From the IMG/VR virus record IMGVR_UViG_3300031992_000084, positions 6,115 to 70,114 of that record: a DNA stretch of 64,000 nucleotides. One strand, given 5' to 3'. Below are positions 25,896 to 58,898 of this stretch, in pieces; position 1 is the first letter of the stretch; every line of letters starts with the position of its first letter. The notes beneath the pieces were generated by a model. The model did not search any database, was not told the DNA's origin, and saw nothing but the letters and a program-made list of their open reading frames with translations. Both the position numbers and the translations under genes were made by a program. The DNA comes from a virus. Lineage: Duplodnaviria > Caudoviricetes.

Positions 25896-26810
25896 ATGGC
25901 AGAAGATAAAACAATTATTATGCCCGAAAACCAGAACGGTTGGGGCAACATTCCTGCCGTTCTTGCTCTGAACGGACTTGGGTACAACAACGGATACCCG
26001 TATGGTGGCGGTCTCTTCGGCGGTAATGGCTCCGGCTTCGGTGCCGGCATCCTCGGCGGCCTCCTCGGCGGCCTTATCTGGAACGGCATTGGTTATGGAA
26101 ACTGGGGCATGGGCTCCTGGGGGAACGGCGGTGGTGCTGCAGCGGCTTCCCTTGGCGCACAGGCCACGGCTATCGGCAACACGGACACAATCCTTCGCGC
26201 TATCGACGGGACCGACGCGGATGTCCGTCTCCTTGCCACAACGCTTAATAGCGATGTGAATACCGTGAAGACGAACCTCTCGACACTCCAGAACGGTCTC
26301 ACTGCCCTTACTGGACAGACCGGTCTTTCTGCGGCCCAGATCATCAACGCCATCCAGGCCGGTGACGCTAGCCTCGCTGCAAACTTATGTTCGTGCTGTT
26401 GCGAGATGAAGCATCTCGTTACATCCCAGGGTTATGAGAACCAGCTCGCAACCCTCCGTCAGACCGAGACTCTTGCCGGTGCCATCGCAGACCTCAAGTC
26501 CACGATGATTGACCAGTTCTGCGCCGCCGAGAAACGCGACATGCAGCAGACCATCACCCGCCAGGGCGACATCATTACCCAGCTCCGCAACGAGGCCGAT
26601 AACGCCCGTCAGACTGCGCAGTTCGGCGCCATGCTCGCTCCTATCGCGGCAGAGGTCAACGACATCAAGTGCAAACTCCCGAACACTGTGCCAGTAACCT
26701 ATCCGAACATCCAAGCCGTTAACAACACCCCGAACTTCGGTGGTTTCTACGGCGGGTTCAACGGATTCGGATACGGCCCCGGCTGGGGTAATGGCAGCTA
26801 CTGGGGTTAA
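25896..26810 (+). CDS. Gly/Asn/aromatic-rich coiled-coil protein with CxCCC motif
   Basis: Low-complexity termini, glycine-zipper segment GAGILGGLLGGLIWNG, heptad region, LCSCCCE. Confidence 0.85.
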   Translation: MAEDKTIIMPENQNGWGNIPAVLALNGLGYNNGYPYGGGLFGGNGSGFGAGILGGLLGGLIWNGIGYGNWGMGSWGNGGGAAAASLGAQATAIGNTDTILRAIDGTDADVRLLATTLNSDVNTVKTNLSTLQNGLTALTGQTGLSAAQIINAIQAGDASLAANLCSCCCEMKHLVTSQGYENQLATLRQTETLAGAIADLKSTMIDQFCAAEKRDMQQTITRQGDIITQLRNEADNARQTAQFGAMLAPIAAEVNDIKCKLPNTVPVTYPNIQAVNNTPNFGGFYGGFNGFGYGPGWGNGSYWG

Positions 26811-27436
26811 TCGTTCCCGGGAGTAGAAGAGTTCTTTGACATACTGACAAGGTTTTCACGGTCGGAGAAAAGTTTCCACTCGAAGCCTTTATATTTCGAC
26901 TGCCCATGATGTATACAGCGTCGAATTCCGTTTATATCGAATCCGTCTCTAGCAGCGTCGCAATAGGATTCGTAAATCCTTTTGTCGTTTCCACTAATCC
27001 TAATTATGGGTACCTGTTTGTGCAACGGGGTGTTTGTCATGAGGCGTTTTAGTGTAATCGGATTTCTTCTGTTTTCAGATGCCGTACACCATCGGAGGTT
27101 CGAAACACTGTTGTTTGCAGGATTGGTGTCGATGTGGTCTATTTCTGGTTTCCCTTCTGGATTGGGAATAAATGTAGAAGCAACTAGCCAATGGACAAAT
27201 TTTCGAAGATAGGTGTTCTCTTTTCTTAAAAAGATATACTTATATCCCAGTTTGTCTGTTATCGGCTTCATAACCCGTCCTTTGACCGTTAAACTTTTCC
27301 CGCTTCGAACTGTAGTTCTTGGCATAGATGCAATTCGCCCCATCGTAGACGCATAGTATGCGTTGTTTATATTAGGAATTGCTTTCCACTCTTCCCCTTC
27401 GAGTCTAATAGACTCAATGAATTCTTGATTTGTCAT
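26807..27436 (-). mobile_element. NUMOD4-HNH homing endonuclease inserted antisense in the cassette
   Basis: GEEWKAI (NUMOD4), VHWLVASTFIPNPEGKPEIDHIDTNPANNSVSNLRWCT (HNH), C-terminal DNA-binding module; own promoter and leader RNA. Confidence 0.88.
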
Positions 27437-27545
27437 AATCTTTCAAGGTTTATGTGATTCAAGGATTTGAAAAGAAAGGGAAAGAGACCTTGAAAACTCT
27501 TGTCAGTAGGTTAATTACTCCTACCTATTCCCTTTTGCAAATTTA
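27437..27545 (-). ncRNA. Structured 5' leader RNA of the HNH gene (copy B) with promoter
   Basis: TAAATTTG (27545-27538), then a three-stem junction whose P3 loop is complementary to two CCTTGAA repeats before the ATG; same topology as 56782-56887. Confidence 0.65.
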
Positions 27546-27561
27546 CTAAAAAGATTTGACA

Positions 27562-27900
27562 ATGGCAAGATTTCCATTTCAATATGTAAACATCAACGGT
27601 TTGCCAACAATTCAGTCCCGCTCCGTCATCGTTACGGATACATCGGTTGACTTCAAGTTCAATCCGGACTGGGACCGCAGACCGTTCCGTGGGCTGATCC
27701 TCGTGTATCTTTCCGAGGAAATCCCCGCAGGGACTACTACTACGCTTCCGATTCGTTTCTCCATGGGCGGCGCCACGAGCAACGTGACCCTCGCCGGCGG
27801 AGCAAACTGGACGGTGGCCGACATTCCTGGACCAGGTGTCTACCTTCTGTACTACGACAGGCTTGCTGACACGCTCCAGCTTCTCAACACAACAATTTAA
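27562..27900 (+). CDS. Cassette protein 2, small beta-sandwich-like
   Basis: MARFPFQYVNINGLPTI...; beta-rich. Confidence 0.75.
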   Translation: MARFPFQYVNINGLPTIQSRSVIVTDTSVDFKFNPDWDRRPFRGLILVYLSEEIPAGTTTTLPIRFSMGGATSNVTLAGGANWTVADIPGPGVYLLYYDRLADTLQLLNTTI

Positions 27901-56544: not shown

Positions 56545-56690
56545 AAAGAATTAAAGGATAGCGAGGCCATCTTCGAGTGTACATAGGAAGAGGAATAATA
56601 TTCAGTCGCGTGTCGGGTACACGGTGTAACTAACAGCTCGCTATCATTTTACCACGGCGTAATTGCCAAGGAGTGCACTAACGGCGGCGT

Positions 56691-56762
56691 ATCGGTGCGG
56701 ATGATGGACAAGACCAGCCGCTACTGGCGGAGGAGGCACGAGAAATTCGCACCGATTTTTTG
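56691..56762 (+). terminator. Large-loop terminator before the HNH promoter
   Basis: ATCGGTGCGGA (56691-56701) pairs with TTCGCACCGAT (56746-56756), followed by a T-run. Confidence 0.5.
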
Positions 56763-56887
56763 TTTCTCGATAGAAAATGTGTATATTTGCGAGCAGAGAT
56801 AGGTCGGAGTAGCTACCGACTGACAAGGGTAAGCAGACAGCCCTTCTCTGCTTTCAAATAGTCTGCGTAACATAAATAGTCTGCAAG
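56759..56887 (+). ncRNA. Promoter plus structured 5' leader RNA of HNH gene (copy A)
   Basis: TTTG-N19-TATATTTG; P1 AGCAGAGA/TCTCTGCT, P2 GTCGG/CCGAC, TGAC, P3 AAGGG/CCCTT; loop GCAGAC complementary to GTCTGC at 56861 and 56879. Confidence 0.65.
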
Positions 56888-57394
56888 ATGGAAAGAATCG
56901 AGGTTTATGCTTATCGTCTCGGGTTTAGAGTCTCCAGAAACGGAGAACTTATTAGTTTTACCGGAAGAAAAAGACAATGTTTATTACATCCAAAAGGATA
57001 TAAATGCATTTCTCTTCGTGTAAAGGTTGAAGACAAATCTGTTTATAAGCTACTGTTTGTACATAGGCTTCAGGCATATCAGAAATTTGGTGAGGAATTA
57101 TTTAAGCCCGGCATTGTCGTTAGACATCTGAACGGAAACCCGGTGGACAACTCTTTCGATAATATTGAGATTGGTACAGAAAGCGACAACTGGATGGATA
57201 TTCCGAAAGAAAAGAGGATTGAACGGGCAAGGAATGCTGCAAGGATGCTACCGAAGAGGTACTCGCGAGATAAAATAGCCATGATAAAGGCTGATCGCGC
57301 ATCGGGGATGTCTTATAATAAACTAATGAAGAAATACGGAATTTCGAGCAAAGGAACGATTAGTTATATATGTAATCACGAATATATGTTTTGA
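56888..57394 (+). CDS. HNH endonuclease with C-terminal HTH
   Basis: FVHRLQAYQKF...VVRHLNGNPVDNSFDNIEIGTESDNWMD. Confidence 0.85.
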   Translation: MERIEVYAYRLGFRVSRNGELISFTGRKRQCLLHPKGYKCISLRVKVEDKSVYKLLFVHRLQAYQKFGEELFKPGIVVRHLNGNPVDNSFDNIEIGTESDNWMDIPKEKRIERARNAARMLPKRYSRDKIAMIKADRASGMSYNKLMKKYGISSKGTISYICNHEYMF

Positions 57395-57395
57395 T

Positions 57396-58898
57396 ATGCA
57401 GTTGCGCGATTACCAAAACACTTTAATTAGCGAAGCAAGGCTGGCTCTGTCGAAGCACAAACACATCATCGTGCAGTCGCCGACAGGATCCGGCAAAGGG
57501 GTCCTCATCGGCTCGATGGCTTCAATGGCCACAGCCAAGCATAACCGTGTTCTGATCCTGGCTCACAGTGAGGAGATTTTGAAGCAGGACGCAGGCCACG
57601 CCAGGAAATGGGGAGTGGATGCGGCTGAGGTCTATGCGAAAACGAGGAAGATGCCGGAGAATGACTGCTGCTGTATGATGGTGCAGACGCTTCGACAAAG
57701 ATTAAAAAAGGATTATTGGCGGATTTGGTTTGACGAATTTAACTTCTTAATACTCGATGAATCGCACCGTTCCGAATTTGACATCGTTTTCGAGTATGTC
57801 AATCCGAAGGTGTATGTGGTAGGGCTTAGTGCCACCCCTGCTCGGTATGGGCGAATGAAGCAACTCGCGCTTATGTATGAGGCGATGGTAGTTGGCCCAT
57901 CAGTCCAAGACCTAATAGACCAAGGTTTTTTGTGCCGATGCAAGTTATATTCCTTGGATGCTCCGTCGATGGATGATGTCGAGTGGGACTACGGTCGTGG
58001 AGATTACTCGCTTGGTCAGATGGCTCAGAAGTTCAAGTCTCGCGCAAGGTACATCGGGGCAGTGGAGAATTATCAGCGTATTTGTCCCGGCGCTAAGGCC
58101 GTATGTTTCGGATGTAGTTCCGAGCAAGTTATTGGAATCACGGAGCAATTCTGCGCTGCGGGTATTAAAGCGAAATACCTGCTATCAGCCAACTTTGATG
58201 AGGACGAGGACTTTAGTGGTGAAAGAAAAGAGATTATGGATCAGTTTAAGCGCGGAGAGTTCCAAGTTCTTGTGCTGCTTGGAATCGGAACTGCTGGCCT
58301 GGATATACCTGATATAAAGGCCGTGCTTGTCTTGTTCGCTACGACCTCGATAGTTAAGTGGTATCAAGTGTTAGGTCGTTGCAGCAGGCCCGCTGACGGG
58401 AAGAATGGCGAGTTTATCTGTTTGGATTTTGGCCTCAATTACTCTCGCCTCGGTCGTTATGAAGATTCTCGCGTTTGGGGACTTTGGCATAAGGAGGGCG
58501 CTGGCGGAGGAGTGCCGCCTATGAAAATCTGTCCGCAGTGCCAGAAGATGATTCCTGTCCAGTATCAAGATTGCCCGTATTGCCAGTACCACTTTCCGAC
58601 ACAGCAAGAAATATATCAGTCGGATTTGCAAGAAATAGTTGCAAAAAACGACGAAGAAACTATTGAGTCCTATGTTGCCAGAAAGAAACTTGAAGGGAAA
58701 TCTAACAACTGGATATTGGTCCAAGTTTGCATAAAGAATCCTGACAACCAAAAGGAAGCATTCATGCGAGCAATCGAGGTGCTGAGGACAAAGCACGGTG
58801 CGAATATCAGCCCAAAGTATTACTTCTTTTTTCGTAAAAACATCCTCGACAAGGTAAAGGTCAAGAAACAGGCGGACTCCTCGCCGAAACTGTTTTAG
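57396..58898 (+). CDS. SF2 (DEAD/ResIII-like) helicase with Zn ribbon
   Basis: SPTGSGKG, LDESH, GLSATP, GLDIPD, CPQC..CPYC. Confidence 0.9.
   Translation: MQLRDYQNTLISEARLALSKHKHIIVQSPTGSGKGVLIGSMASMATAKHNRVLILAHSEEILKQDAGHARKWGVDAAEVYAKTRKMPENDCCCMMVQTLRQRLKKDYWRIWFDEFNFLILDESHRSEFDIVFEYVNPKVYVVGLSATPARYGRMKQLALMYEAMVVGPSVQDLIDQGFLCRCKLYSLDAPSMDDVEWDYGRGDYSLGQMAQKFKSRARYIGAVENYQRICPGAKAVCFGCSSEQVIGITEQFCAAGIKAKYLLSANFDEDEDFSGERKEIMDQFKRGEFQVLVLLGIGTAGLDIPDIKAVLVLFATTSIVKWYQVLGRCSRPADGKNGEFICLDFGLNYSRLGRYEDSRVWGLWHKEGAGGGVPPMKICPQCQKMIPVQYQDCPYCQYHFPTQQEIYQSDLQEIVAKNDEETIESYVARKKLEGKSNNWILVQVCIKNPDNQKEAFMRAIEVLRTKHGANISPKYYFFFRKNILDKVKVKKQADSSPKLF

Follow-up and report, generated by a model that had tools for sequence, protein, structure and literature searches.

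Homing endonucleases need to be expressed sparingly, and how this is achieved outside phage T4 is largely unknown. In T-even phages, translation of homing-endonuclease genes (I-TevI, I-TevII, I-TevIII, segB and Aeh1 mobE) is repressed by hairpins that sequester the ribosome binding site (RBS), and a late promoter starts inside the hairpin; its transcripts escape, and the hairpin forms only on read-through transcripts (PMC2988022). A second RNA relevant here is int-alpA (RF02996), an orphan motif that sits before mobile-element genes and that Rfam types as a small RNA (sRNA) gene; our literature search found no functional work on it, and the main text of the 224-motif paper does not mention it. 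The C4 antisense RNA of phages P1 and P7 (Rfam C4, c4-a1b1) is excised and acts in trans. Here we describe a structured 5′ leader that precedes two HNH genes in a 64,000-nucleotide (nt) stretch of the genome of a Bacteroidota-type phage (Caudoviricetes; IMG/VR record IMGVR_UViG_3300031992_000084, 70,114 bp). We call this stretch the window; it covers positions 6115-70114 of the genome. The leader folds into a three-way junction with a loop complementary to two downstream sites, and we propose that it limits translation of the gene behind it.

The two copies, A and B, lie at window positions 56791-56887 (plus strand) and 27536-27437 (minus strand). An initial annotation, made from the letters alone, had read at both sites a promoter, P1, AT-AG, P2, P3, P1′, repeats and a start codon, and this reading is correct in each case. 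The parts follow the same order in both copies: P1, UA, P2 with an AGUA-type loop, GACA, P3, P1′, and two repeats that we call R1 and R2 (the covariance model built here, which bears the same label, is always referred to as model R1). The same three-way junction is the minimum-free-energy (MFE) fold of copy A alone and of copy B alone, and the stems differ in letters with pairing intact (GUCGG/CCGAC in A, GUAGG/CCUAC in B; in a second stem, GCAGAG/CUCUGC versus AAAGGGA/UCCCUUU). Model R1 scores copy A at 80.3 bits (E 4e-27) and copy B at 57.4 bits (E 3e-18), and the genome holds no further copies. Their resemblance is not due to chance. The two proteins encoded downstream share only 33% identity over 85 amino acids (aa), so that the leaders are better conserved than the genes they precede. 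Loop lengths are unequal between the copies, and a fixed-length pattern matches neither. The strings TTTCAAAT, CATAAA and AAGAT are limited to these two copies and close relatives, their family-wide counterpart being merely a U-rich linker and an A-rich spacer. Further CTGACAAG sites in the window were considered as leader copies and rejected, as they are unrelated coding sequence.

Searches beyond the window revealed a large family. A loose pattern with the P2 stem left free found 38 viral loci, about 25 of which have perfectly complementary P2 arms of differing sequence, and two additional patterns contributed about 100 more. The seed alignment (A3) comprises 23 in-register sequences and was used in place of a 44-core MAFFT alignment whose 3′ half lay out of register; model R1 has 62 positions and 18 pairs. 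With this model we found more than 200 leader copies in viral contigs, metagenomes and metagenome-assembled genomes (MAGs), thus one RNA fold that phages and prophages from gut, rumen and environment carry inside a mobile unit, spread over at least four bacterial phyla. Each phage record holds one to three copies, some in places that no pattern had found. A later metagenome scan yielded at least 119 stretches; of the 100 loci then searched with model R1, 96 proved to hold a copy. Occurrences in MAGs include Segatella, Bacteroides, Bacteroidaceae, Roseburia, Faecalibacterium, Sulfuricurvum and Halopseudomonas; cassette A itself, as a blastn query, had no match among GenBank phages.

The compensatory changes claimed from two copies hold throughout this larger family. 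In the seed alignment 92.0% of cells are paired, against 71.7% in shuffled controls, with changes on both sides in 15 of the 18 pairs. The viral alignment A4 (64 distinct sequences) is paired at 92.4% versus 68.7% when shuffled, with a covariation score of 0.683 versus 0.221, and a held-out metagenome alignment, A6 (80 distinct sequences), gave 92.5% versus 68.9% and 0.650 versus 0.198. Across the three alignments the covariation scores lie at 0.63-0.68 versus 0.20-0.23 when shuffled, 14-16 of the 18 pairs show both-side changes, and moving the 3′ partners by one to three columns lowers pairing to 40-60%. G.U pairs are frequent (60 of 64 sequences have G.U at pair 12:37, and a G.U at the foot of P2 is almost invariant), which points to the sense strand as the folded one and fits an RNA. 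AUAG, AGUA and UGACAAG are invariant amid freely varying stems; the conserved nucleotides of the junction are UA, G.U and GAnA-AG.

The loop of P3 (L3) is complementary to both downstream repeats, as noted initially for the window, and this proved to be a property of the family. In 100 leaders (55 distinct ones and 45 further ones held out from the metagenome set) we compared L3 with what follows it in the same leader, as far as the start codon, using loops of unrelated leaders as the control. In the first set the own loop gave a mean best run of 7.3 bp, and 80% of leaders had at least two sites of at least 6 bp; unrelated loops gave 4.3 bp and 3%. The held-out set behaved alike (7.5 bp and 80% versus 4.4 bp and 5.9%). 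Loop and sites also change together: between the close relatives L016 and L027 (numbers with L or G are our handles for the sequences compared) L3 goes from GCUGAAG to GUCGAAG and both repeats go from CUUCAGC to CUUCGAC. Two nucleotides of L3, usually AA, are left unpaired at its 5′ side and none or one at its 3′ side, a geometry that matches a classical H-type pseudoknot stacking on P3. Within the pseudoknot the counts of G.U and A.C sites are nearly equal (96 versus 93), and the strand was read from the helices instead. L3 and repeat sequences are hypervariable, specific to each cassette and always different between co-resident copies.

The sites stand in a fixed register to the start codon. 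Repeat R1 mostly begins 6-8 nt past P1, R1 and R2 are 7-12 nt apart, R2 ends 0-6 nt before the AUG (3-5 nt in the window copies), and the distance from P1 to the AUG is mostly 32-41 nt. Among leaders with a Bacteroidota-type promoter, 36 of 39 lack a Shine-Dalgarno (SD)-like 4-mer at −16 to −4, and the sequence of R2 is arbitrary. Other phages have leaders with a CUCC-like L3 and GGAG-like repeats, the second of which is the SD itself. The position of R2 is thus kept without an SD, and a GGAG-like repeat is used elsewhere, which argues that the target is the initiation region and not a particular sequence. A pseudoknot aimed at this position in SD-less Bacteroidota offers a handle on how translation starts there. 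The two alternative duplexes are nearly equal in stability, with means of −9.5 kcal/mol for L3:R1 and −9.1 kcal/mol for L3:R2; R1 is the stronger partner in 22 leaders, R2 in 12, and the two are equal in 17. Coordinates of all parts of the window copies are given in Table 1.

Table 1. Features of the two leader-bearing cassettes, in window coordinates.
Feature	Position	Strand	Basis or details
Mobile cassette A (promoter, leader, HNH)	~56761..57395	+	Empty sites; bounds within ~10 nt
Putative cassette A promoter, Bacteroidota type	56759..56789	+	−33 TTTG 56759-56762, 19-nt spacer, −7 box TATATTTG 56782-56789; sequence
Leader A core, three-way junction	56791..56852	+	Model R1 match, MFE fold, covariation
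Leader A P1	56792-56798/56846-56852	+	
Leader A J1/2 AUA	56799-56801	+	
Leader A P2	56802-56807/56816-56821	+	Loop L2 AGUAGCUA 56808-56815, palindrome UAGCUA
Leader A J2/3 GACA	56822-56825	+	
Leader A P3	56826-56830/56840-56844	+	Loop L3 AAGCAGACA 56831-56839
Leader A expression platform	56853..56887	+	U-rich linker, R1, A-rich spacer, R2, 3 nt to AUG
Leader A repeats GUCUGC	R1 56861-56866, R2 56879-56884	+	Complementary to L3 core GCAGAC 56833-56838
Leader A ATG	56888	+	
HNH-A gene, 168 aa, HNH_3	56888..57394	+	Pfam, PHROGs, open reading frame (ORF) list
Mobile cassette B	26816..27561	−	Empty sites in L274, L279, L280, L281
Cassette B −7 box TAAATTTG	27538..27545	−	Bacteroidota type; sequence
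Leader B core, three-way junction	27475..27536	−	Model R1 match, MFE fold
Leader B P1	27535-27529/27481-27475	−	
Leader B AUA	27528-27526	−	
Leader B P2	27525-27520/27510-27505	−	Loop L2 AGUAAUUAA 27519-27511, palindrome UAAUUA
Leader B GACA	27504-27501	−	
Leader B P3	27501-27497/27486-27482	−	Loop L3 27496-27487, core UUCAAGG 27494-27488
Leader B expression platform	27437..27474	−	U-rich linker, R1, spacer UCACAUAAA, R2, 4-5 nt to AUG
Leader B repeats	R1 CCUUGAA 27464-27458, R2 CCUUGAA(A) 27448-27441	−	Complementary to L3 core UUCAAGG
Leader B ATG	27436	−	
HNH-B gene, 209 aa, NUMOD4 + HNH_3	26807..27436	−	Pfam, PHROGs

We compared the leader with catalogued RNAs. Rfam 15 at the gathering cut-off gave no match to the leader in the window, and a search of positions 56740-56910 (171 nt) at E ≤ 10 returned three chance matches only (folP, 13.7 bits against a cut-off of 99); 20 family loci searched at E ≤ 1 likewise gave nothing above chance level. 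Two surveys of viral or prokaryotic RNAs (2023 and 2026) do not mention HNH leaders. The architecture, however, is that of int-alpA. Bona fide int-alpA RNAs taken from Gammaproteobacteria gave the consensus P1 of 8 bp, UA, P2 of 4 bp with a 5-nt loop, GAAAA, P3 of 5 bp with the 9-nt loop AaaCCuUua, CU, P1′, a U run and AAGG(G). Like the leader, int-alpA thus has P1, UA, a P2 opening with G, GA(A/C)AA, P3 with a 9-nt loop, 1-2 nt and P1′, then a U-rich tract and sequence complementary to the P3 loop (CCUUCA with UGAAGG, CCCUUA with UAAGGG), and it shares the location before mobile-element genes; in one canonical member (L228) the tail site UGAAGG is present twice. The two differ in P2 (4 bp and a 5-nt loop in int-alpA, 6 bp and a palindromic loop of 8-10 nt in the leader), in P1 (G+C-rich and 8 bp versus A+U-rich with only 5-7 bp well kept) and in setting, the leader occurring mainly in Bacteroidota phages without SD and mainly before HNH homing endonucleases.

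The models of the two RNAs do not detect each other. Searched over the entire genome at E ≤ 10, RF02996 gave no match (gathering cut-off 35.8 bits), nor did it at E ≤ 1 in a set of 20 loci, the majority of them with a family copy, or in G051, which holds a model-R1-type copy; model R1, run with filters off, did not match nine bona fide int-alpA RNAs. A single sequence, L237:1517-1572, is scored by both (int-alpA 33.6 bits, just under the cut-off; model R1 27.6 bits, E 4e-8); its loop, UGAUCA, is palindromic, and the repeat is present twice. With the same architecture and no cross-detection, the leaders are not members of RF02996 as currently modelled; judged by this comparison, those of the window are an uncatalogued long-P2 variant of the int-alpA kind. 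The novelty that the initial annotation had made dependent on Rfam therefore stands in part: the Rfam model does not score the copies, but the fold as such is that of an existing orphan motif. The connection in turn gives int-alpA a testable function.

We propose that the leader is a cis-acting translation throttle that limits nuclease output, a reading to which we give about even chances. Each site is the 5′ leader of an HNH homing-endonuclease mRNA and belongs to what we call a long-P2 branch of folds of the int-alpA type. Starting from the promoter that the cassette carries, transcription would begin at P1 or a few nt from it, the RNA would form the three-way junction, and the 9-11-nt L3 would then pair with one of two identical sites, either R1, about 7 nt after P1, or R2, next to the AUG. 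Pairing with R2 would bury the landing place of the 30S subunit and hold translation of the nuclease down, and pairing with R1 would leave it free, the near-isoenergetic competition setting a low translation rate, fixed or switchable, for a gene that would be toxic when over-made. Promoter, leader and ORF travel jointly as a selfish cassette. The comparisons establish the fold, the complementarity of L3 to both sites, the register of these sites to the AUG and the cassette bounds; the effect on translation, its direction and the role of repeat R1 are what we infer in this scheme. The two-position switch suggested by the initial annotation is compatible with the near-equal stabilities of the two duplexes. 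A leader of this kind could also be of use in Bacteroides genetics, as a small portable part that limits expression.

The proposed throttle resembles the T-even hairpins in that RNA structure covers the place where translation of a selfish nuclease gene initiates, and in that this gene has a promoter to itself (PMC2988022). The T-even elements, however, are simple hairpins with no shared fold, whereas the leader is a conserved junction with a pseudoknot, lies wholly downstream of the promoter, and has a second, decoy site. In C4, as here, a structured RNA encoded in a leader is complementary through its loops to sites that recur downstream, of which one lies at an RBS, and loop and target covary between phages; C4 differs in its fold and in being cut out and trans-acting, such processing being known for C4 only. 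C4-type Rfam models did not match the leader, either at the gathering cut-off in the window or at E ≤ 10 on the site.

Several observations weigh against a simple throttle. As R1 is as strong a partner as R2, equilibrium would give only partial repression, and why R1 is retained is not obvious. The conserved junction and loop nucleotides and the palindromic loop of P2 exceed the needs of a merely occluding pseudoknot, which hints at a further partner of the leader, be it a ligand, a protein or a second RNA. Since the promoter lies upstream of the whole structure, there is, unlike in T4, no built-in relief on late transcripts. Finally, the linker after P1 is 62% U and contains at least four U in 34 of 55 leaders, so that the leader might in reality act by ending transcripts early or by releasing a small RNA.

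This last feature is the starting point for a leader-derived antisense sRNA, in which most transcripts would stop at the U tract and free a junction RNA of about 60 nt that binds R1 and R2 of read-through mRNAs in trans and blocks their translation. Such an RNA might act alone or as a kissing dimer through the loop of P2 (L2), giving dose-dependent feedback like that of C4 or of plasmid copy-control RNAs. Canonical int-alpA, with its G+C-rich P1 followed by U6-7 and its Rfam type, would fit this explanation, as would the two identical target sites per mRNA, the self-complementary L2 loops described below and the hypervariable, cassette-specific L3 and repeats. The U tract of copy A, however, is short (UUU), P1 is weak in many Bacteroidota-type members, nearly all copies stand 32-41 nt before an ORF, as expected of an element acting in cis, and no free-standing copies were seen. 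We regard an antisense sRNA as unlikely, if by no means far-fetched.

The initial annotation overlooked that the loop of P2 is palindromic. Copy A has AG+UAGCUA as its L2 and copy B has AG+UAAUUA+A, both cores being perfect 6-nt palindromes, and a scan with the loop left free found UCAUGA, UUGCAA and a GAUC core (UGAUCC loop) in other members. A perfect palindrome of at least 6 nt occurs in 8 of 12 distinct L2 types, a level reached in none of 2000 shuffles. Five different L2 palindromes are all self-complementary; as switching from one palindrome to another requires paired changes, self-complementarity is under selection. The loops suggest that two leaders can form a loop-loop kissing dimer. 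The dimerisation initiation site of HIV-1 RNA kisses through a palindromic loop of the same form, a perfect 6-nt palindrome with purine flanks in a hairpin loop of 8-10 nt, and its variants all stay self-complementary; that RNA and its biology are otherwise unrelated, and the leader dimer is only predicted. Phages with three copies (L047, L094, L102, L140/L253; records G031, G032 and G042) carry either the same or different L2 palindromes: UAAUUA, UAGCUA and UGAUC in G042, and UAGCUA in all three copies of L102.

Kissing of two leaders could make the throttle dependent on RNA concentration. In a bolder version, the leader would be a self-recognising RNA: a dimer of two leaders, or of a terminated leader fragment and an mRNA, would bring two P3 loops to bear on R1 and R2 together and would turn the nuclease off above a threshold of RNA. 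We consider this version unlikely; if true, it would amount to an antisense copy-number controller within mobile nuclease, integrase and transposase cassettes across bacterial phyla. A strict correlation between palindromic loop and double site was considered and rejected, as a Faecalibacterium copy (L224:5880) and the canonical int-alpA RNA L228 have two repeats despite a non-palindromic L2; the same two cases count against the dimeric form of the antisense sRNA. The palindromic loop and the double target site are specific features that can be tested cheaply.

The position of the fold on the transcript bears on another explanation. A TAnnTTTG box, which we take to be a promoter element from the published Bacteroides consensus, ends 5-13 nt before AUAG in 37 of 58 distinct family leaders; the gap from the end of the −7 box to P1 is 2-3 nt, and the entire fold lies inside the transcript. 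P1 is thus at the predicted transcription start in these leaders. The leader could accordingly be a 5′-terminal stability element, a compact paired end that shields the mRNA from 5′-end-dependent RNases and raises, rather than lowers, expression. Flaviviral xrRNAs, which resist exoribonucleases, are likewise three-way junctions with a loop paired to downstream sequence, and the AUG would be free if L3 prefers the nearer R1. This explanation leaves the complementarity to R2 and its fixed place relative to the AUG in 80% of leaders unaccounted for, and the 5′-end pseudoknot by which xrRNAs are defined was not found, although no test was aimed at it; we give the explanation only a slim chance. 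Two leaders (L006:7104-7163 and L033:6191-6250) begin 2 nt past the 3′ end of a tRNA gene and not after a promoter, which suggests that the leader 5′ end can also be generated by tRNA processing; this placement, too, would suit a stability element.

The genes behind the leader are diverse. Among 56 distinct downstream proteins, 29 are NUMOD4+HNH_3; DUF723 accounts for four, and GIY-YIG, DUF4379 and phage integrases for three each, and the rest include DnaD_N/HTH_36, Bro-N, OrfB_IS605/TnpB, large terminase and amidase proteins. In L080:3649-4958 a family leader directly precedes an IS605-type TnpB (OrfB_IS605 with a Cas12f1-like TNB domain), so that the fold also serves RNA-guided transposon nucleases. 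Most of these genes belong to mobile elements, where low expression is plausible, and the census points to the leader as a device that such genes use in general to set their expression.

The same census bears on the suggestion that the leader is an RNA partner of the nuclease. The leader always travels with a nuclease gene, as a cofactor or guide of the HNH protein, or a DNA-level recombination or protein-binding site, might do, and cassette B has an inverted repeat between its leader and the 3′ end of its ORF. But the same leader stands before GIY-YIG, integrase, TnpB, Bro-N, DnaD-like and terminase genes, and unrelated proteins behind one leader make a specific RNA partner of HNH unlikely; strand-specific G.U pairs and compensatory changes favour RNA over a DNA site. 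The inverted repeat (window 26836-26856 and 27494-27514; 21 nt, 81%, core TACTGACAAG) has one arm towards the 3′ end of the HNH-B ORF and the other in J2/3-P3 of leader B, and is confined to one HNH subfamily (window B, L140 and L017), that is, 3 of about 60 cassettes. A cofactor or DNA site is thus very improbable, and inverted repeats were rejected as general cassette ends. Within that subfamily the 3′ region of the HNH-B mRNA could pair with its own leader.

A riboswitch-like sensor, in which the junction and loops bind a small molecule, an ion or a factor of host or phage and thereby choose between L3:R1 (on) and L3:R2 (off), would account for the invariant AUAG, AGUA and UGACAAG amid free stem variation, and for two isoenergetic alternative partners of the kind found in riboswitch expression platforms. 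There is, however, no metabolic theme among the genes served, the phages belong to hosts of at least four bacterial phyla, and no Rfam riboswitch model matched in the window at the gathering cut-off or on the site at E ≤ 10. We consider a sensor improbable.

The initial annotation had also raised a ribozyme, which would process the 5′ end of the nuclease mRNA. A small junction with a pseudoknot and invariant unpaired nucleotides would befit a catalytic RNA, and a eukaryotic precedent is GIR1, a ribozyme reported to cap a homing-endonuclease mRNA (PMC2219692). Comparison gave the idea no support: hammerhead, twister, twister-sister, pistol, hatchet and HDV models had no match on the 171-nt stretch even at E ≤ 10, nor in the window at the gathering cut-off, and the element is already at the 5′ end of the transcript, with nothing upstream to remove. 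Catalysis is therefore highly improbable.

That the RNA is a portable module travelling with HNH genes is borne out by empty sites, which bound both cassettes. The gene downstream of cassette A, a helicase (57396-58898) whose ATG follows the HNH-A stop codon by 1 nt, has homologues at 59-93% identity in 22 relatives, and in all 22 there is no model R1 match within 3 kb upstream of it. At the empty sites of cassette B, blastn places the flanking genes about 40-110 nt apart; the spacer of L274 measures 53 nt and holds a terminator hairpin. In occupied relatives (L273, L276 and L277) the leader and the first ~55 nt of the ORF are shared at 82-86% and the ORF body is not. Two further phages are informative: the otherwise unrelated G006 has in common with the window only leader B plus 55 nt, and G042 only the core of leader A. 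The leader DNA is thus better conserved than the ORF body. On these alignments, each of the two loci holds promoter, leader and HNH gene as a single inserted cassette. The gene that flanks cassette B on the right (27556-27900, plus strand) has ATG 27562 as its most likely start, and the −33-like element of the cassette B promoter is the reverse complement of this gene's first codons (cTTGCcat), so that the insertion would take part of its promoter from flanking DNA.

A noncoding block (56600-56766) immediately precedes cassette A. Over 56652-56690 relatives match it at 92-100% identity, against only about 65-70% in their coding DNA, and 56691-56766 folds into a long stem (AUCGGUGCGGA...UUCGCACCGAU) with U6 behind it, as in a terminator. 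The block, perhaps a small RNA or a regulatory site, had no significant Rfam match and a fold z-score of −0.4. The relatives share the block around 56652-56690 and then have different content before the helicase, so that, by this comparison, the region upstream of the helicase is evidently an insertion hot spot. Two methyltransferase-like ORFs occupy it in L182 and L188. In L199 (2900-2990) the 39-nt conserved block is separated from the helicase start by a tRNA-like gene that ends GGTTCGAGTCCTGCCTCGCCA, at about the place that cassette A and the terminator-like stem take up in the window.

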